Part shown: piece after piece, positions 6,292 through 23,190 of the stretch
Layout: each line of letters starts with the position of its first letter
Numbering within the stretch: the stretch's first letter is position 1
Notes under the pieces: generated by a model
Databases searched by the model: none
Told to the model about the DNA's origin: nothing
What the model saw: only the letters and a program-made list of their open reading frames with translations
Assembly (NCBI GenBank): GCA_017444385.1
Contig: JAFSWQ010000008.1
Coordinates: 71,685 to 135,684, forward strand
Length of the DNA: 64,000 nt
From: Clostridia bacterium
GTDB lineage: Bacteria; Bacillota; Clostridia; Christensenellales; CAG-1252
Reading direction: 5' to 3'
Position numbers and translations under genes: made by a program

Positions 6292-9200
6292 ATGGACGAA
6301 AAACTAAAAGGCTGGGCGGAAGGTCTACTCGATCTAACCAAAAACAACAACCTTATCAATTTCAAAGACACGAGAAGCGGGACTTTGGACGTAATATATC
6401 CCGATTTCAACACGTTGTTCGACAAGATAAACTCGGACGCTACGTTAGAGGTGTACGATCCTAAATTCGACGATGAAGACGAGGACGAGCCTATTTCCGA
6501 CGACGTTGAATCCGTTCTTCGCGCAACCGCGCCGAGAATAAAGAAAAACAATCAAATAATCGTCTACAACGCTTATACTCGCAATCCCATACCAATTCTT
6601 AAACAAATCAAGAATAAGGCGTTGACCGTAATGACCGAGACCAGCGTTAATATAACCTACGTCGCTACGGCGTTTATCCTTTGGAAAGAGCCCGACGAGC
6701 CCGACGTTTACAAAGCGCCTATTCTTCTCACGCCTATAACCATCTTAAACAATTCCGCGCTTACGCCTTTCTATATCGAAACGCAACAAGACGAAACCAT
6801 CGTCAACCCCACTTTCGCGTATAAACTCAAAGCCGAACACAATATCGATCTTCCCGACTTCGGCGACGAAACCATAGACGAATACGTTACCAAAGTGGAA
6901 AGTATAGTTAAAATGCTCGGTTGGAGCGTTTCGAGAAGCATAAAGATAAGCACGTTTTCTTTCTTGAAGATGAATATGTACGTCGACTTGAAAGACAATT
7001 CCGAGAAGATACTTGAAAACAAAAACGTTCGAGCGTTACTCGGTATCGCGGATTTCGAGTTCGACGGCGAAACCGCCAAAAAGCCTCTCGATCTATTCCA
7101 GTTACACCCCATAGTCGACGCGGACAGCTCTCAATCACGCGCTATGCAAATGGCTCGAGACGGCGTTACCTTCGTTTTACAGGGGCCCCCGGGAACGGGT
7201 AAAAGCCAAAGTATAACCAATATAATCGCCGAATGTTTGTATGCGGGTAAAAAGGTGCTTTTCGTTTCCGAAAAACTCGCCGCGTTAAACGTGGTTTACG
7301 AGAAGCTCAAACAAAGCGACCTCGCGGATTTCTGTTTGGAATTACACAGCAGTAAATCCAACAAAAAGGACGTCGTTAAAGAATTGTGCCGCGTTTTGAA
7401 TTTAGGTAAGACGGGCGTATCGCCCAAGGCGGAAAGAGAACTTCAACAAATCGCTTTGGCGAAAGAGAAGCTCGACGGTTACGTCGACGAATTGCACGCC
7501 GAAAGAGAGACGATAAAACGTTCGCTCTTTGAAATGATCGTCGAATACAACGAAACCAAAGTCGAAAAAGAAATAGATTACGTTATTCGCGATATACATC
7601 TTAAAGGCGAAGAGTATTTCAACGAGATAACCGAGCACCTACATCACTACGTCGAGATGATAGACTACGTAGGAGAAGACTACCGCAAGAATTGCTGGTT
7701 CGGCTTTATCGGATCAGATCCCAGTTATTCCGCAAAAGTCAAGGTCAAAGAAGCCCTTTTGAAAATGGTGGACTTTTTGTGCGACCTTAAACCCGTCGTA
7801 GCCGAATTGAAACAAAAATTCGATATCGACGCCGACTCGGTTTCCCTCTCGAACAAGTACTCGAATTACTGTTTATTCCTCTCGCAAGTAAGATATCTTT
7901 TGCCTTCTACTCTCAATAAAGAAAAGGCGGCGAAAGTCCTCGACCTTATCAACGAGCAAGGCGGATCAGCCGAGAAGTATTTGAAAATCAAGGGCGAAAT
8001 CGACGCGGAATTCAAAGAAGACATATACGCTCTTGAAGCCTCTCTCGTCAAAAACAACCTCGTCCTTAACTACGGTAAGGGCATAAAGAGAGCGTTTTCA
8101 AAGGAATACAAAGAAATATCCAATTTATTTAGAAGTTATAATAAGTCGTTAAAGAAAGTCTCTTACGACGAGATTTTGGCGTTACTCGATAAACTTATCG
8201 ACCTAAAAGAAACCGAGCGGGTATTCGTCGAAAACGAAGGGAAATACGTCGGCTACTTCAATTCCGCTTACGCCGGCGTTAAGACCGACTTTACTAGACT
8301 TCTAAACGAACTCAAAGCGGTGGTCGAATACGATCTACCCGTCGGCAAAATCGCCTCGATGAGCGAAGAGCAATTCAAGGCTTGCCGCCGCGACCTCGCC
8401 CAAATCAAAGAAAAAATCAAAGCCACTCAAGACGAACACAAGGACGCTATCAAATTCATTCACGCTTCCTTCGATCCCAAAGACTTCAATTTGTTGAAGT
8501 TACCCATAGACAGCGTTATCGAAAAATTCACCCTTTGCAACGCGAATATCGACGAAATAGTCAACTGGATAAACTTCTACGCGCTTTTCGTGAAGATAAG
8601 GGAAATGGACGTTGCGGACTACCTGCCCACCTACATAGACGAGGGCGTAAAGAAAGAGGAAGTCGTCAAAGTATTCAAAAAGATTTTCTTCAAAGAATGG
8701 TTCGACTACGTTATCCAAAACACCCCCTCGCTTGCCGAACTCGGTAGAATATTGCACGACCGCACCGTTGATCAATTCGCCGAAAAAGATCAACTGCAAT
8801 TCGCCGTAAACAAGGCGAAGATAAAAGCCAAAGTATCCTCGTCAAGACCCGACCTCGATCTTATCACCGCGGGAAGTCCCATTTCAATTCTTATGAGAGA
8901 GGGCGAAAAGAAGAGAAGGCACAAACCCATTCGTCAATTGCTCGAAGAGATCCCCGATCTCGTTCAGGATTTGAAGCCTTGCTTCCTTATGTCGCCGTTA
9001 AGCGTAAGCACCTTCCTCACCGCCGACTTCCACTTCGACACCGTCATATTCGACGAAGCGTCGCAAATATTCCCGCAAGACGCGGTGGGCGCGATTTATC
9101 GCGGCGATCAACTTATTTGCGTGGGCGACTCAAAGCAAATGCCGCCTACAAACTTCTTCAATTCGACGATAACTTACAGCGAGAACTTCCGTGACGAGGA

Positions 9201-10839
9201 TATAACCGATTACGAATCCATTCTCGACCTTTGCAATACGGCGTTCCCGCAAATATACCTCAAATGGCATTATAGAAGCAAATACGAGGAACTTATCAAC
9301 TTCTCGAACGTGAACTTCTACGACTCTCAACTCGTCACCTTCCCGTCGGTAGAGAGGAAGAAACAATGGATAGGCGTGGATTTCTATTACGTCGAAGACG
9401 GCGTATTCGAGCATAACACGGCGGTAAATAAGAAAGAAGCCGAGAGAGTGGTCGAGCTTATCTACGAAAATATAGAGAAGTATCCCGATAGAAGTTTGGG
9501 CGTTATCGCTTTCAGCACCCGTCAACAAGCGCTAATCGAAAAGGCGTTATGGAACGTTAGAAAGGATCACCCCGACAAAGAATTCTTCTTCTCGTCTGAT
9601 AGAAAGGAACCCTTCTTTATAAAGAATCTCGAAACCGTTCAGGGCGACGAAAGAGATACCGTCATTTTGAGCGTAGCCTACGGTAAAGACGCGGAAGGCA
9701 AGGTATTGCATAATTTCGGGCCTCTCAATAAAACGGGCGGCGAGAGAAGACTTAACGTCGCGGTATCGAGAGCGAAATGCAATATGCAGGTCGTAGCCTC
9801 TATGAAATACACCGATATCGACTTGAATAAATCCAAAGCGAAAGGCACGGTGCTTCTTAAAGAGTATTTGCGTTTTGCAGAGCTTGGCGCCGAGGACGTT
9901 CAAGGCAAGAAGAGAGAACTCATCGTCGACGATAGATTTTGTAACTCCGCTTACGACTACTTACGTGGGCGCGGTTTCGTCGTAGAGAGAAACGTCGGTT
10001 TATCGGATAGAAAGATAGATTTAGCGGTCAAAAACGCCGAGGGCGACAGTTACGTTTTGGCGATAGAGTGCGACGGCAACGAGTACGGCTCTTTCGAAAC
10101 TACTACCGATAGAGATAGACTTCGCAGACAAAACCTCGTTCGCTTCGGCTGGGACTATTACAGGCTTTGGTCGGTCGACTGGTGCGAGAATAATTCGGAC
10201 GAATTGAAGCGCCTCGTCGCCGCAGTCAACAAGTCGTTAAAGAAAGACACCGACAAGAAGAAGGGCGGGGAAGAGCCGAAAGATCCTTCCTTCGACGTGC
10301 CTATACCCGAAACCACCTTCGAATTCCCCAAATACGTGGAAGCCGACGTCGAGAAATTGCGTAAAAAGCACAAGATAAACTTCTTGGCGATCGTTAAAGG
10401 TATTCTCGAAGTGGAGTCCCCAATAAGCGAAGAATTGCTCGTTAAGAAGATGCTATTCTATTTCAATAAAGATAAAGTAACGGCGGAAGTCAACAAGAGC
10501 TACGCGGCGTTAATGAAGAACTGCTCGTCGTTCGGTATAATCCGTCAAAACGAATTCGTCTATCTTGCGGGGCAAACCGAATTCCCGTTGAGGGTAATGT
10601 CTGACGGAAGTATGCGCGACGTGAAGTATATCGCGCTTGAAGAACTTTCCACGGGGCTTCTCGAAATATTAAGAAGAAACGGCTCTGCGGAAAAGGTATC
10701 GTTATATAAGACTCTTTGTTCGTTTTTAGGGTATCAACGCATAGGCGCGGCGGTAATGAGAAGATTAGAGATAGCGCTAAATCTCAACGCGGATATTCTC
10801 GATATCGACGAAGTAAACGTTCGCATTAAAGAAGAGTAG
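6292..10839 (+). CDS. Large SF1 (Upf1-like) helicase with a DUF4011-like N-terminus, a Vsr/DUF559-like endonuclease fold and a DUF3320-like C-terminus
   Basis: 1515 aa. N-terminal LLDLTKNNNLINFKD. Walker A GPPGTGKS, Walker B FDEASQ. Further helicase motifs GDSKQMPP, HYRS, QGDERD, NVAVSRAK. Then IDLAV...AIECDG...W-rich nuclease-like block. Confidence 0.75.
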   Translation: MDEKLKGWAEGLLDLTKNNNLINFKDTRSGTLDVIYPDFNTLFDKINSDATLEVYDPKFDDEDEDEPISDDVESVLRATAPRIKKNNQIIVYNAYTRNPIPILKQIKNKALTVMTETSVNITYVATAFILWKEPDEPDVYKAPILLTPITILNNSALTPFYIETQQDETIVNPTFAYKLKAEHNIDLPDFGDETIDEYVTKVESIVKMLGWSVSRSIKISTFSFLKMNMYVDLKDNSEKILENKNVRALLGIADFEFDGETAKKPLDLFQLHPIVDADSSQSRAMQMARDGVTFVLQGPPGTGKSQSITNIIAECLYAGKKVLFVSEKLAALNVVYEKLKQSDLADFCLELHSSKSNKKDVVKELCRVLNLGKTGVSPKAERELQQIALAKEKLDGYVDELHAERETIKRSLFEMIVEYNETKVEKEIDYVIRDIHLKGEEYFNEITEHLHHYVEMIDYVGEDYRKNCWFGFIGSDPSYSAKVKVKEALLKMVDFLCDLKPVVAELKQKFDIDADSVSLSNKYSNYCLFLSQVRYLLPSTLNKEKAAKVLDLINEQGGSAEKYLKIKGEIDAEFKEDIYALEASLVKNNLVLNYGKGIKRAFSKEYKEISNLFRSYNKSLKKVSYDEILALLDKLIDLKETERVFVENEGKYVGYFNSAYAGVKTDFTRLLNELKAVVEYDLPVGKIASMSEEQFKACRRDLAQIKEKIKATQDEHKDAIKFIHASFDPKDFNLLKLPIDSVIEKFTLCNANIDEIVNWINFYALFVKIREMDVADYLPTYIDEGVKKEEVVKVFKKIFFKEWFDYVIQNTPSLAELGRILHDRTVDQFAEKDQLQFAVNKAKIKAKVSSSRPDLDLITAGSPISILMREGEKKRRHKPIRQLLEEIPDLVQDLKPCFLMSPLSVSTFLTADFHFDTVIFDEASQIFPQDAVGAIYRGDQLICVGDSKQMPPTNFFNSTITYSENFRDEDITDYESILDLCNTAFPQIYLKWHYRSKYEELINFSNVNFYDSQLVTFPSVERKKQWIGVDFYYVEDGVFEHNTAVNKKEAERVVELIYENIEKYPDRSLGVIAFSTRQQALIEKALWNVRKDHPDKEFFFSSDRKEPFFIKNLETVQGDERDTVILSVAYGKDAEGKVLHNFGPLNKTGGERRLNVAVSRAKCNMQVVASMKYTDIDLNKSKAKGTVLLKEYLRFAELGAEDVQGKKRELIVDDRFCNSAYDYLRGRGFVVERNVGLSDRKIDLAVKNAEGDSYVLAIECDGNEYGSFETTTDRDRLRRQNLVRFGWDYYRLWSVDWCENNSDELKRLVAAVNKSLKKDTDKKKGGEEPKDPSFDVPIPETTFEFPKYVEADVEKLRKKHKINFLAIVKGILEVESPISEELLVKKMLFYFNKDKVTAEVNKSYAALMKNCSSFGIIRQNEFVYLAGQTEFPLRVMSDGSMRDVKYIALEELSTGLLEILRRNGSAEKVSLYKTLCSFLGYQRIGAAVMRRLEIALNLNADILDIDEVNVRIKEE

Positions 10840-14598: not shown

Positions 14599-16308
14599 TT
14601 GTTTTATAATATAATCGTGAACTATAAATCGTTGTATCGCAAATACAGACCTCGCACTTTCGACGACGTCGTAGAGCAGGGCTATATAGTAAAGATTTTG
14701 AGAAATCAAGTTTTAAGCGGCAATATCGCGCACGCTTTTTTATTCACCGGGACGCGTGGAACGGGTAAAACTACGCTCGCCCGCATTTTTGCCAAGGCTA
14801 TAAATTGCGAAAACCCCGTTAACGGGAATCCGTGCGGGACTTGCCCCGCGTGCCAAGCTCTAACGCAAGGCTCGTCCGACGTTTTCGAATTGGACGCCGC
14901 TTCCTATAACGGCGTAGACAACGTTCGTCAACTCGTCGATAGCGTTCAATACCTACCGATGACCACAAAGTACAAGGTGTATATAATCGACGAAGTTCAT
15001 ATGTTTTCGACTTCCGCTTTTAACGCGCTCTTGAAAACAATAGAGGAGCCTCCCGAATATTGCGTGTTTATATTGGCTACTACCGAAGTTCAAAAGATAC
15101 CCGATACCATACTTTCGCGTTGCGTAAAGCTCGATTTCCGCTTGGTTAGTACGAAAGGCGTGACCGATTTAATAAAGTCCTTATTAGACAAAGAGAAAGT
15201 TGCTTACGACCTCGACGCTATCAAAGCGATTGCCGAAGCGGGGCAGGGCAGCGTTCGTGACGCATTGAGTATCGCAGAGACCTGTATAGGCGCGAAAGAC
15301 GGAAAGTTGGATTTTCAAACCGTAATCGAGGTTTTGGGCGCAAACGCCCCCGAATTTATCCAAGAATTATCTCGTTCTATCGTTGCGGGCGACCTATCGG
15401 GCGCGCTCTCTCAAATCAATTACGCGGGCGAACTCGGCAAAAATATGGCGGTTTTGGCGCGTGACGTAACCAAGTATTTACGCGATTTATTGATAATAAA
15501 GACGGATAAAAACGCGGCAAAACTCGTTTCTTTGCCCTCGTCTACCTTTGATAAGGCGAAAGAAGTAGCCGAAAAATTCTCGTACGAAGAAATATTGAAT
15601 TGCTTGGAAATTCTATCCGGTTGCGATACCGCGATGAGATATTCGACAACGCCGCGTTACGTTTTGGAAACCGCGGTCGCTAAATGCGCGTCGCTAACGA
15701 GAAACGACTTGATCGAAACGAATGCAAAGATAAAACAAATCGAACGAAAGATAGAAGAGGGTATAACGGTCACAAAGTACGTCAATACGGTGGAATACGT
15801 CAATAAAACCGAGATCGTGACGCAAGCCGTTGAACCGGCGAAAGAAGAGGATGCGGCGCTTACCGCGGCTAACGAGCTTCCTTTTGAGACGGTAGAGGTC
15901 GAAGAGATACCTTTCGACGTGCCGATTGAAGCACCTAAACCAATTGAAAAACCCGTGGAAGCTACTAACGCAAAGCCCTCCTATAAAGCGATAAATACGG
16001 CTAAAAGTATGGAATTGAAAGGGTTTATCAAACTCAAATCGCGCGACGTAGATCCGATGCTTGCGGCAATTTTCAAAGGAGACGACGTCAAAGTGGACGT
16101 TTATCCCAGAAAGGTAGAGCTTATCGTAAAAAGCGAATTCGATTATAAAATGTTAAAGGAAAAAGAAGAGATGTTGAAGTCGCTTATTTACGAGTTTTGC
16201 GAAGACGGTATGCCTTTCGAGATAGTGTATAACGAAGCGAAAACCGCTTCGAACGTAGGTGAATTTCAAAATATGTTCGAAAAGAACAAAGTAAAAGTAA
16301 ATAGATAG
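14599..16308 (+). CDS. dnaX: DNA polymerase III subunit gamma/tau
   Basis: LYRKYRPRTFDDVVEQ, Walker A GTRGTGKTT, zinc module CGTCPAC, DEVHM. The start is uncertain: TTG 14599 or GTG 14617. Confidence 0.9.
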   Translation: MFYNIIVNYKSLYRKYRPRTFDDVVEQGYIVKILRNQVLSGNIAHAFLFTGTRGTGKTTLARIFAKAINCENPVNGNPCGTCPACQALTQGSSDVFELDAASYNGVDNVRQLVDSVQYLPMTTKYKVYIIDEVHMFSTSAFNALLKTIEEPPEYCVFILATTEVQKIPDTILSRCVKLDFRLVSTKGVTDLIKSLLDKEKVAYDLDAIKAIAEAGQGSVRDALSIAETCIGAKDGKLDFQTVIEVLGANAPEFIQELSRSIVAGDLSGALSQINYAGELGKNMAVLARDVTKYLRDLLIIKTDKNAAKLVSLPSSTFDKAKEVAEKFSYEEILNCLEILSGCDTAMRYSTTPRYVLETAVAKCASLTRNDLIETNAKIKQIERKIEEGITVTKYVNTVEYVNKTEIVTQAVEPAKEEDAALTAANELPFETVEVEEIPFDVPIEAPKPIEKPVEATNAKPSYKAINTAKSMELKGFIKLKSRDVDPMLAAIFKGDDVKVDVYPRKVELIVKSEFDYKMLKEKEEMLKSLIYEFCEDGMPFEIVYNEAKTASNVGEFQNMFEKNKVKVNR

Positions 16309-16324
16309 ACAGGAGGAATTTATT

Positions 16325-16657
16325 ATGGCTAAATACGGTGGTTACGGTGGCGGCGGCAATATGCAAGCGCTCATTCGTCAAGCGCAAAAGATGCAAGAAG
16401 AAATGCAAAAGGCTCAAGAGTCGCTGAAGTCGATGGAATTCGTAGGCTCGGCGCAAGGCTTGGTCGAAGTTACCTTGACGGGCGAAAAGACTTTGGTCGG
16501 CGTAAAGATCAAGCCCGAAGTCGTCGATCCCGAAGACGTTGAAATGCTCGAAGATCTCATCAAAGCGGCGTTTGAAGACGCTTACGAAAAAGTGGAAGAA
16601 AAGACCGAAGAGGTCATGGGACCTTACGCAAGTATGCTTAAAGGTACGGGATTTTAA
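16325..16657 (+). CDS. ybaB: YbaB/EbfC nucleoid-associated protein
   Basis: 110 aa. MQALIRQAQKMQEEMQKAQE. Conserved position between dnaX and recR. Confidence 0.9.
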   Translation: MAKYGGYGGGGNMQALIRQAQKMQEEMQKAQESLKSMEFVGSAQGLVEVTLTGEKTLVGVKIKPEVVDPEDVEMLEDLIKAAFEDAYEKVEEKTEEVMGPYASMLKGTGF

Positions 16658-17241
16658 TGAAGAATATACCCGCAATAAATCGTTTGGCGGATAAGTTTTC
16701 CACTCTTCCCGGGGTAGGTAAAAAATCCGCCTTACGCTACGCTTATAAAATAGTCGGAATGTCCGACGAAGACGCGGAAGATTTTATCGAGGCTATAAAA
16801 GAGGTCAAAGAAAAAGTACATCTTTGTTCTTCTTGCGGCGCGTTTACCGATCTACCCGTATGCGAGATTTGTTCGGAAAGAGACTCGTCTACGATATGCG
16901 TCGTTAAAGAACCTAAAGACGTTGACGCATTCGAGAGGCTTGGGGAATATAGGGGCGTATATCACGTTTTACACGGGCAATTAAGCCCCTTAAACGGAAT
17001 AGGTCCCGACGATTTGCGCATCAAAGAACTTTTAGCGCGCCTTGATGATTGTAAAGAGGTTATAATCGCCTTAAATCCCGACGTAGAGGGGGACGCAACG
17101 GCTATGTATATTAGCCGCCTTATAAAGCCTTTGGGTATCAAAGTTACGCGTTTGGCACGCGGAATTCCTTCGGGCAGCGAACTCGAATACGCCGACGAAG
17201 CGACTTTAAGCGAAGCCTTCAACGCAAGAAAAGAGTTTTAA
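16657..17241 (+). CDS. recR: Recombination protein RecR
   Basis: 194 aa. HhH LPGVGKKSALRYA, C4 zinc finger CSSCG..CEIC, Toprim region. Confidence 0.9.
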   Translation: MKNIPAINRLADKFSTLPGVGKKSALRYAYKIVGMSDEDAEDFIEAIKEVKEKVHLCSSCGAFTDLPVCEICSERDSSTICVVKEPKDVDAFERLGEYRGVYHVLHGQLSPLNGIGPDDLRIKELLARLDDCKEVIIALNPDVEGDATAMYISRLIKPLGIKVTRLARGIPSGSELEYADEATLSEAFNARKEF

Positions 17242-17414: not shown

Positions 17415-19010
17415 TTAGTGCAAATGATATTTTTTCGTAGAATAGAGAATACCGTAAACGCAAACGTAGAAGGGAATATTCGCCAATAATACGGCGGGAT
17501 AGAATATGGGAACTATCATTGAATTTACGTTATCGACGGTCACGTTCAGCGAGGGTATAAAGAACCCTAAAAGCATAATAACGACCATCAAATTCAAGTA
17601 GACCATTATCGCCGTCGCAAGACTTATACGGAAATTATAGTCGGTCTTTTTGCGTTTAAACCTAAAGAAAAGGTACTTTTGAATAAAGAAGAAAGGTATC
17701 ACCAAAGCGATAAGGGCGATAACCAAATAGAATATAAGACCTTTTTCTACCGTTTTGTCAAAGAAGAAATAACCGAGTAAGACCTCTAAAAGTATCATCG
17801 CAAACGTGATAATAGAGCAGTCCTTGTTGATTCTATTTACGAAATAGAAGTTGTCAGCATAGTAGGAATATGCGTTTTGGTTGACGTAAGGCTTTACTAA
17901 AATGCCCTTTTTAGCCATTTGAGTCTTTAATTCGGCATAAGAAGAAACGCTAATAAAGTGATCTTGCTCGGGCTCTTCTTCAATAGCCTCTGAAGGTCTA
18001 TCGGGTAGAATCTCTTTCAAAATGTTTTCGTACCCGTACTTGTTGAAAATATCCATTTGGGCAAGATAGGTCTTGAATTCGCCGTAAGCGGTGCCGGTTT
18101 CGGTAACTCTTACCGCGGTTGCGAGTTTTTCTTGCTCTTCAAGCGTGACTTTGGAAGCCTCGTTTTCGCTCTTTACGGGCTCTACGACTGGGTCTTCCTT
18201 AGGTGTTTCGGCGGGCTTTTCGTCGAACATTCCAAGCGCGTCCATCGCTTCGAGTTCTCTGCGAGCTTTTTCTGCGTCGTAGACGTAAGTAGGGCGGGGG
18301 ATATACTCTTGTTTTTCCTCAACATTTATATTTTCTTCGGTTTTGACCGTATTAAAAGAATTCTTTTCAGTGCTTACAGCCTCAGGACTTTCGACGTTAT
18401 CGGTTACTTCAACGGGGGTTGATTCTTGTAATTTATCCTCTTTTTCAAGGCTTTCAACGACGTTTGAATTATCTTCTTCAACTTCTTGTTTTTTCTTATC
18501 TTTAGCCGCTTTTTGCGCTTTCTCTCTTTGTTTCTTTTCCTTTTTGGTCTCTACGCGGATAAGAGGTTCTTCCCGTAATTCTTTTATTTCCTCTTTCAAA
18601 GGCGCTTCGACGGGTGCTGCTTTAACGACTTCGTCCATAAGGATAATACCGTAGCGGTCGCCCGATTTTACGAGAGAGCAGCCCTCGGCTTTTGACGCGT
18701 CGTCTAAGACTACTACGCCGTAATTTGCCGATAATTGATAAGCGGTGTAATTTACGAGAGAGAAGATAGGGGTGTCCGCATACTCTAAAATAGAATACTT
18801 TCCGTCCTCTTCCGAATAGGCGATTGCGCCTTCCTTTACCATACCGTCTAATAGGTATTGCAAAGATCCATCCGCCAAATAATAATCGTCCGAGATTATA
18901 ACGAAAGAAGCCTCGATACCGTCAATATCGGACGGCTCGTTGGCGAGTTTATTAAGAACAAAACTTTGACATTGTTCAAGCAAGTAGGGCTTCGTTATAT
19001 TCGTACTCAT
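17415..19010 (-). CDS. Hypothetical membrane protein: soluble N-terminal domain, Lys/Glu-rich linker, C-terminal multi-TM region
   Basis: 531 aa. Low-complexity KEKKQREKAQKAAKDKKKQEVEE segment. About 5 predicted TM helices in the last ~150 aa. Confidence 0.6.
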   Translation of the reverse strand: MSTNITKPYLLEQCQSFVLNKLANEPSDIDGIEASFVIISDDYYLADGSLQYLLDGMVKEGAIAYSEEDGKYSILEYADTPIFSLVNYTAYQLSANYGVVVLDDASKAEGCSLVKSGDRYGIILMDEVVKAAPVEAPLKEEIKELREEPLIRVETKKEKKQREKAQKAAKDKKKQEVEEDNSNVVESLEKEDKLQESTPVEVTDNVESPEAVSTEKNSFNTVKTEENINVEEKQEYIPRPTYVYDAEKARRELEAMDALGMFDEKPAETPKEDPVVEPVKSENEASKVTLEEQEKLATAVRVTETGTAYGEFKTYLAQMDIFNKYGYENILKEILPDRPSEAIEEEPEQDHFISVSSYAELKTQMAKKGILVKPYVNQNAYSYYADNFYFVNRINKDCSIITFAMILLEVLLGYFFFDKTVEKGLIFYLVIALIALVIPFFFIQKYLFFRFKRKKTDYNFRISLATAIMVYLNLMVVIMLLGFFIPSLNVTVDNVNSMIVPIFYPAVLLANIPFYVCVYGILYSTKKYHLH

Positions 19011-19176
19011 ATTTATATTTTATAATTTATATCCATATAAGTCAAGAGGTTTATACGGTCTAATATTCGGCGATTTAGGACGTTATTTATCTTTATCAAT
19101 CAAAAACAAAGGTCGAATTCGCTTTGAATTCTACGTTTGAAATTTCGATAACCCTTATAGAGCAGGGTAGAATAAG

Positions 19177-19392
19177 CTATTGTTTCTTACTCTTACGATA
19201 TTCGTCGTAGGTTAATACTTTGTCTATGATTATGCCGGCGTAGTCGACTTCGCCGTCGAGTCCTATACATTTCATACAGTTATCGCAAACTTTGGTCGAG
19301 TCGAATTCGCAAAGGTCGCAATAACCGCAATTATCGCAAATATTTTCTTCAACTATTACGCAATGCTTTACGCCGTCGTCTTTTTTAGCCAT
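19177..19392 (-). CDS. Cys-rich mini-protein (71 aa, 10 Cys), translationally coupled to the recombinase
   Basis: CDNCGYCDLCEFDSTKVCDNCMKC pattern. Its start overlaps the recombinase stop by 8 nt. Confidence 0.55.
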   Translation of the reverse strand: MAKKDDGVKHCVIVEENICDNCGYCDLCEFDSTKVCDNCMKCIGLDGEVDYAGIIIDKVLTYDEYRKSKKQ

Positions 19393-20440
19393 CTTCTTCG
19401 TCTTCCTTTTTCCTTATTTTTACCACGCCGGCAGCCTGTCTTTTTATATCTTCGTCTATAGCGGCGTAGTGCCTTTTTGTCGTTTCAATGCTCGTATGCC
19501 CGAGAACCTCCGCAACGACGTATATATCTTTGGTTTCTCTGTATAGATTCGTACCGAACGTTGAACGCAGTTTATGCGGCGTTATATGCTTTAATGGGGT
19601 AGCGATTTCCGCATACTTTTTTACCATAATTTCCACCGTTCTCACGCCTATTCTTTTATTTTGCATAGAGAGGAATAGAGCGGTGGTTTCTACCTCTAAA
19701 GAGCGGCGATATTCCATATACTCTTCCATGATCTCGATAACTTCTTCGGGCAGGTAGAGAATGGTACGATTACCGCCTTTCCTCGTTACTCTAAACGAGC
19801 CGGCGGCGAGATCCACGTCCTCGATATTCAACCCGACGCATTCGGATACGCGAATACCAGTGCCGAGCATTAAGGTAAGCAGCGCGACGTCGCGGATTTT
19901 GGTTTTTTCGTGGTATTTTTGCGCTCTCGATGAGAGTTCTTCGCCGCCTTCAACTACGTCGAGAAAATCGGTCATCTCCTCGCCCTCTAACCTTATTATC
20001 TCTTTCGAATGCTTTTTAGGCATATCGACTTTGGTGGAAACGTTTTCTCTTAGCAGGTTTTTATTATATAAATAGGCGAAAAGCCGCCTTAATGAAGCAA
20101 GTTTCCTCGATTTACCTTCCGCGCCGTTATTTCTCGTAATGCCGTTTTCATCGACGTAAGAGGTAAGATAATCTAAATAATTCTCAATATCCGTTTGAGT
20201 AACCGCGTTTAATTGATCTATGGTAAAGTCCTCGATGGACGTATTTTTGAATTTTCTCACTTCGTTAGTTAAATAATTGAAGAATACCAAATAATCACGG
20301 CCGTAATTCAATCGCGTAAGCGGAGAAGTAATATTGGACATCGCAACGAAGAACTGCGAACAAAATTCGGGCAGCCGATCGCGTAGTTCTTTAATTTGTT
20401 TTATTATCTTTTCGTCGCGTTCTTGAGAATAATTCTTCAT
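19385..20440 (-). CDS. Tyrosine site-specific recombinase (XerC/XerD/integrase family)
   Basis: 351 aa. N-terminal SAM-like domain. Catalytic pattern GTGIRVSE (Arg), HKLRSTF (His-x-x-Arg), LGHTSIETTKRHY (His...Tyr). Confidence 0.85.
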   Translation of the reverse strand: MKNYSQERDEKIIKQIKELRDRLPEFCSQFFVAMSNITSPLTRLNYGRDYLVFFNYLTNEVRKFKNTSIEDFTIDQLNAVTQTDIENYLDYLTSYVDENGITRNNGAEGKSRKLASLRRLFAYLYNKNLLRENVSTKVDMPKKHSKEIIRLEGEEMTDFLDVVEGGEELSSRAQKYHEKTKIRDVALLTLMLGTGIRVSECVGLNIEDVDLAAGSFRVTRKGGNRTILYLPEEVIEIMEEYMEYRRSLEVETTALFLSMQNKRIGVRTVEIMVKKYAEIATPLKHITPHKLRSTFGTNLYRETKDIYVVAEVLGHTSIETTKRHYAAIDEDIKRQAAGVVKIRKKEDEEDG

Positions 20441-20507
20441 ATGATAAGTATAAATAAAAAAAAGCGAAAAGTAAATACTTTTCGCAAAAATTCAAATAGT
20501 AAATAAC

Positions 20508-20714
20508 TTATTTTTCGTTAACGCCGAGAAGCTCGTCGGACGATACTTCAAGTACCTTGCAAATACGAATAATAAAATCAATACTGGGCTCGTTGCGACC
20601 TTGCTCCCAGTGAGCATAACAGCTTTCGGTCACTCCTATGAAATCCGCCATTTGTCTTTGAGTATAATTCCTTCGTTTGCGGGTAATAACTAAGTTAAAT
20701 CTAAAACTATTCAT
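20508..20714 (-). CDS. Small XRE-family HTH DNA-binding protein (68 aa)
   Basis: RKRRNYTQRQMADFIGVTESCYAHWEQGRNEPS HTH_3 pattern. First gene of the XRE-recombinase-Cys-rich unit. Confidence 0.8.
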   Translation of the reverse strand: MNSFRFNLVITRKRRNYTQRQMADFIGVTESCYAHWEQGRNEPSIDFIIRICKVLEVSSDELLGVNEK

Positions 20715-20792
20715 TTGTCACCTCAAAAAATATTGTATCATATGTGAAAGAAAATTACAAGTGATATTGTAAAATAAAATCAAAAAAAATGT

Positions 20793-20815
20793 TTATTATG
20801 TACTGTACATAATAA
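20793..20815. promoter_or_regulatory. Perfect 23-bp palindrome TTATTATGTACTGTACATAATAA upstream of the XRE gene (candidate operator)
   Basis: 11-bp arms are exact reverse complements around a central T at 20804. The core equals the TACTGTA heptamer of the neighbouring repeat arrays. Confidence 0.6.
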
Positions 20816-20888
20816 TATAGAAAAATAGTAGTTTTTCAGTCAAGAGACGTTTGATAATACATTAGAAGGGCTCAGCGTATAAAAAGCG

Positions 20889-21249
20889 TACAGTATATAA
20901 CATACAGGATATAAAATACAGGATTATATATACAGTAGGTTATATACAGTATGTATTATACAGTATATATTATACAGTAACTGCACGATTTATAAAATGT
21001 ATATAGAGTACAGTACATATTATACACTACATATTACACAGTACATAGAATACAGTATATTGTATACAGTACATAAAATACACCATATATACATAGCGTA
21101 CAGTATAGATTATACACTACAATATGTACAGTGTATATACAAATAGTACAGGGTGTTATGTACAGTACATATTATACAGTAAATATACATAATATACAGT
21201 AGTATATATACAGTACATATCGTATATACAATATACGTTTTGTACAGAT
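20889..21249 (+). repeat. 14-bp-periodic TACWGTA repeat block 1 (almost all TACAGTA)
   Basis: Cores at 20889, 20903, 20917, 20931, 20945, 20959 and 20973 are exactly 14 bp apart. Later cores at 21009, 21023, 21037, 21051, 21065, 21079, 21099, 21113, 21127, 21147, 21161, 21175, 21195, 21209 and 21243 are spaced 14, 20 or 34 bp. Confidence 0.9.
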
Positions 21250-21398
21250 AGTGTTAGATTTTTCGTAAATCATAATATTAAACGGGATTTATTAAGGTTT
21301 GAGATAATCATAAAGAGGATTAAGTAGAGAAGACCACGGTTTAGAGGGAGATCGCGTATAAAAGCGGCGCGGTTATTAAAAACCCGTAGAGAAGGGTA

Positions 21399-21432
21399 TC
21401 TATACAAAACGTACATATCGTTAAAATTTTAA
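21399..21432 (+). repeat. 34-bp direct repeat, copy 1 (TCTATACAAAACGTACATATCGTTAAAATTTTAA)
   Basis: Identical 34-mer recurs at 22410-22443. Weaker similarity continues ~45 nt downstream (GGGGTCGAAATTTA vs GGGGACAAATTTA). Confidence 0.85.
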
Positions 21433-21548
21433 GACGATTATTTAATTATTGGGGGTCGAAATTTAATAAAATCAACACGTTATTTTCATATAAATCGAAT
21501 AGAGCAGCCATCTACCTTCGCTATACAGATATAAAAAATATTATTGTG

Positions 21549-21701
21549 TACATTATGTACAGTGTATGTACATAGCGTACAGTATAATTTATACGGTATA
21601 TAATGTACATATTATATACGTTTAGTACAGTACATAATATACTGATATACGTACGATATATACAGTACAATATGTACATATACTGTACGTTTTGTACAGT
21701 A
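21549..21701 (+). repeat. 14-bp-periodic TACWGTA repeat block 2 (mostly TACAGTA)
   Basis: Exact TACAGTA at 21578, 21626, 21661 and 21695; TACTGTA at 21681; many one-mismatch cores (TACATAT, TACGGTA, TACAGTG). Confidence 0.85.
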
Positions 21702-22120
21702 TATAACATTGAAAATTTTAATTTACCAGTATCCGCAAATAAAATACAATTCATATAAGCGTTAAAAAGTATTAAGATCGTATGAATCGACGGCATATTA
21801 ATAATAATGACTAATATATTATATCAAATACGGCTGGCTTAATACAATTCTATTTCTTTTATCCCGGATATCGAGCAATACTTCAAAGTATATCGTTATC
21901 CTTTATAACTCATGTATTGTTTTTACGTAGATAGCAATTAAGAATACGGCTTTGATTATAAACTATCGCGACAAAATGCGGCAAGCTCTAAACCATAAAC
22001 CAATCTTTGCTTCTAAAAGTCCTACGGTCACGCGGGTTTTTTGCTTTCATTCAGGATCATATCACGCCAATTTGAAAATACGCCTAAAATGTCGTTTATA
22101 TATTACATATTAGCCACTAA

Positions 22121-22150
22121 CTATTCGCAAAAGTATGCTTTTGCGAATAG
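22121..22150. other. Perfect 13-bp-stem hairpin CTATTCGCAAAAG-TATG-CTTTTGCGAATAG in the unique core of the ORF-free region
   Basis: The arms are exact reverse complements. No long U tract on either strand. Confidence 0.7.
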
Positions 22151-22409
22151 TTTACAAAAATATCATCACATTGGCAACACGATCGCAAGCTACCGGATTT
22201 ACAAATATTCTTAAAAATTGATTGATATCCGCTCTGCCCTGCGTTCGTATATTTACCAGCAGTAAATTCAAGCAATGATTCTTATAGATAATTTGGCGTA
22301 AAAATAACGAAAAATCACTAAACAAGATGAGAACTTCACGTATTGATTTATATCTTTAATAGTTTATCTTTCCGACCGCCATATTAATAAAAACCTCAAT
22401 TAAACTACC

Positions 22410-22443
22410 TCTATACAAAACGTACATATCGTTAAAATTTTAA
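22410..22443 (+). repeat. 34-bp direct repeat, copy 2
   Basis: Identical to 21399-21432, 1011 bp downstream. Confidence 0.85.
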
Positions 22444-22541
22444 AGCAAATTTATAATCTAACGGGGACAAATTTAGCGATTATTATCAATATTTCGCAAC
22501 GATAAGAAGGATCATTTCTACGATTGTATGATATGTATAGT

Positions 22542-22776
22542 TACTGTACAAACTGTACACAAGATTATATTATGAGTTAAAATGGGATAGATAACTCTGA
22601 ACTCATAATAGATTTCCCGATACACCACACTTCTCTATCCGAATTCCTAATAAAGAACTAAATGTATATAATGTACTGTATTTTATATACTGTACTTTTC
22701 GTATATTTCCTGTACATATTATACTGTATTATTTGTATATATTATATACGTTTTATACTGTATTATATAAACTGTA
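22542..22776 (-). repeat. 14-bp-periodic TACWGTA repeat block 3 (TACTGTA orientation), interrupted at 22561-22660
   Basis: TACTGTA at 22542, 22674, 22688, 22722 and 22756. Near-cores at 22552, 22708 and 22770. Spacings 14, 20 or 34 bp. Confidence 0.85.
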
Positions 22777-22858
22777 CATATCATACATAGTAACGACGCT
22801 TGATAGATATTGTAATGCTGAACTATTTGAACGCAATATTTGAAAAATACTTTGCTCA

Positions 22859-23136
22859 TTCTGTACATAAAGTACTGTATAATATAGCCTGTACTTTTTG
22901 TATTGTAAGCGCCCTTCTCTATCTTTCTTTAAATCACTCTGCTATCTATCATTACATAGATAACGATGTACGTTATGTATATTTATTGTATAGAATGTAC
23001 AGTATATAACGTACTGTATAATTTATATGTAATATATACATATTGTACTGTACATATACTACTATACAGTATATACTATACACTATATACTGTATAGTAC
23101 ATACTGTATATTACATACTGTACTTTATGTACTGTA
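22859..23136 (-). repeat. 14-bp-periodic TACWGTA repeat blocks 4-5 (mostly TACTGTA)
   Basis: Cores at 22859, 22873 and 22887, then TACTGTA at 23012, 23046, 23088, 23102, 23116 and 23130. Two TACAGTA at 22998 and 23065. Confidence 0.85.
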
Positions 23137-23190
23137 CTTTTTTATATGCATATTATATACTTAAATTTCTTACTTTATTACTTGCAGATT

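Follow-up and report, generated by a model that had tools for sequence, protein, structure and literature searches.

Among described single-recombinase Xer systems, those closest to the locus reported here are XerS/difSL of streptococci and lactococci and XerH/difH of Helicobacter and Campylobacter. They combine a recombinase of ~350 aa with a gene-linked site at a switch of GC skew, built from two inverted arms ending in ...AAAA and TTTT... around a short centre (difSL arms, TTTCCGAAAA and TTTTCTTGAAA; difH, AGTTATGAAAA; PMC5357621). Fork traps are known only as Tus-Ter of Escherichia coli and RTP-Ter of Bacillus subtilis, two small unrelated groups; Ter sites are asymmetric and form two opposed groups, RTP arrests forks that meet the high-affinity B site first, rtp is located inside the innermost Ter/dif region, and tus is close to terC (PMC13220808). 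Whether fork traps exist in other bacteria is unsettled, and the locus described here offers a candidate. It lies in a 64-kb stretch of Clostridia DNA (contig JAFSWQ010000008.1 of assembly GCA_017444385.1, positions 71,685 to 135,684), hereafter the window, in which a 2.5-kb gap between genes (20715-23190) carries oriented arrays of short repeats on both sides of a dif-like palindrome.

Our reading of this gap, which we hold tentatively and put somewhat short of an even chance, is that of a dif-centred terminus locus whose flanking polar arrays would be bound by a small XRE protein and act on machines converging at dif. To our knowledge, mirrored arrays of repressor sites around dif have not been described before: the literature that we searched, with incomplete coverage, held no account of arrays flanking dif, including for XerS and XerH systems.

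A dif-like palindrome at the replication terminus

The gap separates two sets of genes. To its left, dnaX-ybaB-recR on the plus strand are followed on the minus strand by genes for a 531-aa membrane protein, a 71-aa Cys-rich protein, a 351-aa tyrosine recombinase and a 68-aa XRE protein; to its right lie ynbB-miaA-mutL-mutS, all on the minus strand. Left of ~21 kb, GC skew is mostly positive and genes are mainly on the plus strand, while for 41 kb to the right of the gap the skew is negative and genes are on the minus strand. Because GC skew and gene strand both switch there, the replichores converge at the gap, and the locus is the replication terminus.

Near the centre of the gap lies a perfect 34-bp palindrome, present in one copy within the window, which can alternatively be read as 11-bp arms around a 6-bp centre (TATTCGCAAAA-N6-TTTTGCGAATA, centre GTATGC). 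Its conservation, position and arm sequence indicate that it is very probably a dif-like dimer-resolution site at the terminus, with the adjacent XerS-like single recombinase as its partner.

22119-22152, no strand: dif-like core site, a perfect 34-bp palindrome, AACTATTCGCAAAAG-TATG-CTTTTGCGAATAGTT
19385-20440, minus strand: XerS-like tyrosine recombinase, 351 aa (Pfam Phage_integrase, 4e-35)

When six syntenic species were aligned on the palindrome, it emerged as the sole conserved block of the central ~0.9 kb, with invariant arms and a variable spacer; the rest of this central region was unconserved except for repeat units at its edges. Of 80 GTDB representative relatives, at least 50 have the same arms beside the recombinase gene, upstream of it and usually 60-150 bp from its start codon, compared with 1.7 kb from the gene in the window. 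A terminus-type switch of GC skew coincided with the site in 41 of the 47 relatives' loci that had enough flank to be scored, and an origin-type switch in none (0/47). The arm ends, CAAAA and TTTTG, resemble those of the published difSL and difH arms. We also considered the palindrome as an intrinsic terminator, which was ruled out because no T-run follows it in the window.

The best NCBIfam model for the recombinase was XerS, matched over its full length (1.6e-61) with 208 bits, below the 267-bit equivalog cut-off; the protein is XerS-like, not XerS. Relatives in PDB comprise XerD, XerA and XerH. The catalytic set R-K-H-R-H-Y was present: across 25 homologues, R197, K221, H289, H315 and Y325 show no variation, R292 is conserved in at least 90%, and the spacing of these residues is that of XerD. 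Recombinases of the six syntenic species are 63-79% identical to that of the window, and more than 8000 homologues were found in Clostridia and Christensenellales metagenome-assembled genomes (MAGs). The idea that recombinase and XRE protein form a mobile-element pair was rejected, as these more than 8000 homologues stand in conserved synteny at the terminus.

With XerS/difSL and XerH/difH, the module shares the size of the recombinase, its full-length similarity to XerS, the inverted arms with their characteristic ends around a short centre, the linkage of site and gene and the location at a skew switch. It differs from XerS/difSL in having perfectly symmetric arms and a centre of 6 bp (or 4 bp), compared with the 11-bp difSL centre, and from both XerS and XerH systems in that, in the clade of the window, an XRE gene and 1.4 kb of arrays lie between the site and the recombinase gene. 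We found no description of a module of XerS-like recombinase and palindrome in the incompletely covered literature that we searched, and it may add a single-recombinase Xer system beside XerS, XerH, XerA and the Legionellales system. The representatives in which recombinase and palindrome form a terminus module (at least 50 of the 80, L013-L092) are labelled Christensenellales, Clostridia or Lachnospiraceae; for many Christensenellales and other Clostridia, the pair of dif-like site and XerS-like recombinase offers a terminus marker for MAGs.

Oriented repressor-type repeats on both sides of the dif-like site

The sequence on either side of the palindrome is rich in the heptamer TACWGTA. Exact copies number 38 in the window, 33 of them within 20715-23190 (19 TACAGTA and 14 TACTGTA), compared with a shuffle expectation of 4.2 ± 1.95 for the whole window. 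With up to one mismatch allowed, their density is 27 per kb in the gap versus 1.8 per kb elsewhere in the window. Exact heptamers are most frequently spaced by 14 bp (12 of 32 intervals), and Tandem Repeats Finder returned periods of 14, 28, 42 and 48 bp. One run keeps the 14-bp period over seven positions (20889, 20903, 20917, 20931, 20945, 20959 and 20973), two of its members reading TACAGGA. The GC content of the gap is 0.28 versus ~0.45 in the flanks, and 20715-23190 contains no open reading frame (ORF) of at least 100 aa. Four blocks of repeats can be delimited.

20889-21249, plus strand: left outer array; head-to-tail TACAGTA half-sites, mostly at 14-bp spacing, with dyads 21088-21102, 21136-21150 and 21232-21246; polarity toward dif
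21547-21701, plus strand: left inner block; dyads 21547-21561 and 21567-21581 (20 bp apart), 21615-21629 and 21684-21698, with heptamers; a block at the equivalent position in relatives
22542-22778, minus strand: right inner arrays; dyads 22545-22559 and 22691-22705, TACTGTA half-sites at 22674-22762; polarity toward dif; innermost block positionally conserved in relatives
22859-23139, minus strand: right outer arrays; TACTGTA half-sites, a 14-bp run at 23088-23136 and dyad 22967-22981

Much of this had been anticipated in an earlier note made by a model from the sequence alone. Its manual counts of about 19 TACAGTA and about 14 TACTGTA proved exact, its seven cores 14 bp apart were found at the positions given (with the two TACAGGA variants), its view that the gap holds no credible ORF agrees with our search, and the run of Tandem Repeats Finder that it proposed returned the 14-bp period. 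The note overstated matters in writing that many units extend to the 13-bp palindrome ATGTACWGTACAT, of which there are 2 exact copies and 4 with one mismatch. It had also named an assembly artefact as a possible source of the repeats. Over up to 20400-21981, the window is 100% identical to contigs of seven other metagenome assemblies; the left arrays are therefore no assembly artefact, and the doubt is lifted for this left half.

What the note did not recognise was the setting at the terminus, with a dif-like site in the middle of the gap and a chromosomal, widely conserved Xer-type enzyme as the neighbouring recombinase. The note's choice of the heptamer as repeat unit captured a real motif, but only half of the true unit, which is an asymmetric 15-19-bp dyad of the form (C)TRTACA-N3-TGTAYA(G), with the consensus aCTRTACA-NNN-TGTAYAGt (ACTATACATAATGTACAGT). 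TACAGTA is the consensus-rich half of this dyad, as in ...GTACAGTA. The arrangement TRTAC-N5-GTAYA is dominant, with 123 copies in ten related gaps versus 0.2 in shuffles; in the window, 12 of 14 copies fall within the gap (0.18 expected for the whole window), and in the sister-clade locus L232 the gap holds 24 of 26 dyads. Gaps contain between 7 and 24 dyads, and the distance of the nearest one to the centre of dif ranges from 46 to about 500 bp. Among 136 neighbouring pairs, 27 are 20-21 bp apart, equal to two helical turns; phage-repressor operators show this tandem spacing together with a 10-bp distance between half-site centres. Head-to-tail amplification of the TACAGTA half at 14 bp has taken place in the window and in L009 and accounts for the 14-bp array that the earlier note had singled out; fitting these 14-bp arrays by hand to the N5 dyad recovered no canonical dyads in them.

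Both sets of repeats are oriented with respect to dif. In the window, all exact heptamers of the left span 20889-21701 read TACAGTA except the copy at 21681, and all those of the right span 22542-23136 read TACTGTA except the copies at 22998 and 23065, so that, these three exceptions aside, the opposite polarity of the two halves reported in the note was borne out. Over six species, TACAGTA occurs 48 times forward and 11 times in reverse to the left of dif, and 8 and 39 times, respectively, to the right. For the dyads of eight species, the half with the flanking C or G faces dif, with ratios of 39:11 to the left of dif and 7:33 to its right (Fisher 1e-8, a value that overstates the significance because tandem amplification and shared ancestry make the sites non-independent). 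Seven of eight species share this polarity in their dyads, and five of six share it in the heptamer.

Polar heptamers that point toward dif from both sides might be guides read directly by FtsK/SpoIIIE in the manner of FtsK-orienting polar sequences (KOPS), and the FtsK guide motif of Lactococcus is also a heptamer (PMC5357621). KOPS and architecture-imparting sequences (AIMS), however, are defined by genome-wide over-representation and replichore skew, whereas the heptamer has 9 copies in 152 kb outside the gaps (left 2/0, right 3/4) and is neither enriched nor skewed there. It is thus a local feature and no genome-wide guide. As the true unit is, moreover, a dyad with repressor-type geometry, we consider direct reading by these translocases very improbable.

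The earlier note had further proposed a recombinase-invertible segment or a long structured noncoding RNA, and long inverted repeats do flank the centre of the gap. The conserved recombinase site, however, is the single central palindrome and not the repeats, and the orientation of the heptamer, alike in most syntenic relatives as given above, speaks against inversion. Covariance-model searches of the gap against Rfam 15 in gathering and E-value modes, the check suggested in the note, found no match (best score 24.9 bits versus a gathering score of 100), and the ~0.9-kb centre shows no conservation beyond palindrome and edge repeats. Either proposal now appears scarcely credible. A centromere-like scaffold, also put forward in the note, drew on the dense arrays of short oriented repeats that serve small dimeric proteins in parC/ParR and omega heptad systems. 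Here, the arrays are mirrored about a recombination site and the candidate protein has a helix-turn-helix (HTH) rather than a ribbon-helix-helix fold. No partition nucleoside triphosphatase (ParA, ParM or TubZ) with its adaptor was found among the neighbours recR, ybaB, dnaX, the recombinase, ynbB, miaA and mutL/mutS, and this proposal was abandoned on that account.

In addition to the arrays, the gap contains a 65-bp direct repeat, D6, whose two copies flank the dif-like site and share one orientation.

21399-21463, plus strand: direct repeat D6 (TCTATACAAAACGTACATATCGTTAAAATTTTAA...), copy 1; includes dyad 21401-21415
22410-22474, plus strand: direct repeat D6, copy 2; includes dyad 22412-22426

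The two copies are 78% identical and consist of a dyad plus TCGTTAAAATTTTAA. D6 was also detected on both sides of dif in L009, and was undetected in more distant species.

A conserved XRE protein as candidate ligand of the arrays

The gene bordering the left end of the gap encodes the 68-aa XRE protein. Phylogenetic co-occurrence, fold family and conservation suggest that the array sites are operators for dimers of this protein, and that XRE binds the arrays is, in our assessment, probable.

20508-20714, minus strand: 68-aa XRE protein with Cro/CI-type HTH, candidate array-binding protein (Pfam HTH_3, 5.7e-14)
20732-20760, minus strand: XRE promoter-like element, TTGTAA-17-TACAAT with TG extension; consensus match only
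20798-20810, no strand: palindrome ATGTACTGTACAT, the outermost site, ~40 bp upstream of the -35 box of the XRE promoter

Repeated dyads flanking dif were found only in XRE-bearing loci. An XRE gene together with a gap of 1.4-3.8 kb occurs in the clade of the window (L009, L010 and L093-L098) and in a sister clade (L229-L232), while in 80 distant relatives, with dif gaps of 100-1500 bp, neither repeated dyads around dif nor an XRE gene beside the recombinase were detected. Within the XRE-bearing group, the gap is retained even between species whose proteins share no more than 56-79% identity. XRE surpasses all other proteins of the locus in conservation, with 87-94% identity across the clade versus 62-85% for recR, ynbB and the recombinase (62-70% for ynbB). 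Its recognition helix does not vary in either clade, nor does its segment GVTE(S/G)CYAHWEQGRNEPSI save for the S/G position, in parallel with the conserved DNA half-site. The comparison with relatives that the earlier note had called for thus revealed that repeats and XRE gene co-occur in both clades, and together with the invariance of recognition helix and half-site this lends plausibility to the note's suggestion that the repeats serve as a nucleoprotein scaffold for the neighbouring XRE protein.

Phage-type repressors bind dyads of 14-18 bp. The closest solved relatives of XRE are Xre of ICEBs1 and the P22 C2 repressor, its closest named relatives are phage repressors with about 40% identity, and a homologue search recovered only 7 close relatives. 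In common with CI, Cro and C2 and their operators, the locus has the protein fold family, dyads of 15-19 bp, half-site centres 10 bp apart and tandem sites separated by two helical turns. Differences are the 7-24 dyads and additional half-site arrays per locus, compared with 2-6 operators, the lack of detectable promoter overlap and the setting at a chromosomal terminus without phage genes. Promoter-like hits in the gap are not enriched (30 versus 23 ± 5 in shuffles). The palindrome at 20798-20810 is a possible autoregulatory operator, and comparably placed sites occur in L093, L094, L098 and L232.

The kinship of XRE with phage repressors and the operator-like dyads, paired 20-21 bp apart, would also suit the immunity region, domesticated or in decay, of a dif-integrated mobile element, whether an integrative mobile element exploiting Xer (IMEX) or a prophage remnant, with leftover operators that have no host function; dif sites are known integration targets (PMC5357621). 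Such a remnant is at odds with the absence of phage genes and of a second dif copy from the gap, with the persistence of the gap among the diverged species described above, in which XRE is better conserved than recR and ynbB, and with the mirrored polarity of arrays on both sides of dif. We give this origin a small chance.

In the sister clade L229-L232, the block of gap, XRE gene and xer is inverted relative to the flanking recR and ynbB, an arrangement that looks like a symmetric inversion around the terminus. Compared with the window (17415-23190), the genes for the Cys-rich and the large membrane protein stand on opposite sides in these loci.

Possible action of the arrays on machines converging at dif

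The exact flip of the array polarity at dif suggests that the arrays interact with directional machines converging on this site. In the reading that we favour, XRE dimers would occupy the dyads and coat the arrays as polar barriers. Coming from the origin side, a motor would meet the weak half of each dyad first and displace XRE, and one that has run past dif would meet the strong half first and be stopped, the strong half being defined here by its closeness to the consensus and not by affinity. The most likely target would be the replisome, with termination held to about 1 kb around dif by a trap built like RTP-Ter or Tus-Ter from an unrelated protein. It is because a fork past dif would meet the consensus-rich half first that we favour a compact fork trap as the function of the arrays, a tentative assignment by analogy that we put well below an even chance. 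The broader proposal, of a third, independently evolved bacterial fork trap in which a phage-repressor-like XRE protein on tens of polar dyads would so confine termination in an uncultured gut Clostridia clade with an undescribed XerS-like single-recombinase/dif module, we regard as somewhat unlikely.

RTP-Ter and Tus-Ter resemble the locus in their asymmetric sites in two opposed groups and in having the gene of the protein next to a site, and in analogy to the RTP B site the higher-affinity half would face the fork to be stopped. They differ in that the only DNA-binding candidate at the present locus is an unrelated 68-aa HTH_3 protein, and in that about 2.5 kb directly around dif accommodate tens of sites, compared with 9-10 sites over 10-43% of the chromosome.

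Several points weigh against a dif-centred locus with polar barriers. The assignment of the strong half derives from consensus closeness, and the 14-bp heptamer arrays lack canonical N5 dyads. In the sister clade, L230 is without dyad polarity on one side. The general leading-strand bias of the genome, G>C and A>T, has the direction of the polarity but is far weaker (~55:45 versus ~80:20). At the XRE promoter, the nearest dyad is situated upstream of the -35 box and leaves the core promoter free. The recombinase/dif module, moreover, occurs with neither XRE nor arrays in at least 50 relatives. Finally, known fork traps are largely dispensable (PMC13220808), so that strong conservation of a dedicated trap is less expected.

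As an alternative, the arrays could be accessory or architectural sites for Xer recombination, where XRE bound to the flanks would wrap or synapse the DNA or activate the recombinase. Variants of this idea include selectivity for resolution, like that conferred by PepA and ArgR at cer and psi, and a replacement of FtsK activation, like that by the phage factor XafT. The recombinase gene follows immediately on that for XRE, arrays flank the core site on both sides, and XRE has weak NCBIfam matches to the RstR family (3.2e-17, below the cut-off) and, at 0.0023, to the VC1465 family Xer activation factor; such HTH matches are, however, generic. A precise synapse would need fixed geometry, as at cer and psi, where the accessory region is one-sided and at a fixed distance. 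Here, sites occur on both sides of the core, and the distance from dif to the nearest dyad as well as the number of sites vary widely, as given above, which argues against a synapse of the cer/psi type and fits a barrier or a dosage-type function. Most relatives, in addition, have the recombinase/dif module without arrays. A role as Xer accessory sites is, all in all, unlikely.

A collective or dosage role would also be suited by the large and variable number of sites if the arrays were a terminus anchor or condenser, with XRE coating about 2 kb around dif and tethering it to the division site like MatP/matS or RacA, or if they were a titration sink that times the xer operon. One site lies upstream of the XRE promoter, and in the window's clade genes for membrane and Cys-rich proteins follow xer. 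Neither function needs polarity, yet the sites point toward dif in seven of eight species, and in the sister clade the membrane and Cys-rich protein genes stand outside the XRE-xer transcription unit. We judge anchoring or titration quite unlikely. If the arrays nevertheless control Xer recombination or terminus positioning instead of forks, they would constitute a new accessory layer on dif.

The fork-trap candidate that we favour is compact and defined by sequence; it combines a single small protein with a site of 15-19 bp and a clear rule for orientation, and is testable in vitro and on heterologous replicons despite the uncultured hosts.

Neighbouring genes and further observations

Among the genes around the terminus, dnaX-ybaB-recR (window 14599-17241) directly adjoin it; in Bacillus, this cluster lies near the origin. 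A 1515-aa superfamily-1 helicase-like protein with DUF4011, AAA_11, AAA_12 and MTES_1575 domains (window 6292-10839, plus strand) is encoded 10 kb from the terminus and is syntenic in relatives. The two genes that follow the recombinase gene (window 17415-19392, minus strand) encode the 71-aa protein, with about eight Cys residues, and the 531-aa protein, whose middle is acidic and of low complexity and which has a membrane domain at its C terminus. Neither matched a family in Pfam, PHROGs or NCBIfam, and weak homologues of them occur near the recombinase in some distant relatives.

Between the XRE and recombinase genes, we noted one further element.

20464-20485, minus strand: hairpin followed by a T-run, terminator-like, between the XRE stop and the recombinase start

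A dif-arm-like sequence, ATCTTTTCGTRAAAT, stands directly ahead of the recombinase ATG in the sister clade (L230, 9975-9999; L231, 1455-1478) and may be a half-site for self-regulation of the recombinase.

Short-read metagenome contigs of the species and its relatives (L001-L007, L010, L229 and L231) repeatedly end within the arrays, and MAGs of this clade are therefore expected to be broken at the terminus in most cases.

Exact scans of viral and metagenome collections for TACAGTA-N7-TACAGTA-N7-TACAGTA yielded 130 loci, all of which were rejected as unrelated tandem satellites. None of them carried XRE or the palindrome, and only L110 had a weak tyrosine-recombinase match (26% identity). Very large tandem satellites containing TACAGTA, with up to 268 copies, are present on many metagenome contigs (L117, L155, L158, L186, L202 and others); nothing connects them with XRE, Xer or dif, and they are probably satellite DNA of no relation to the locus.

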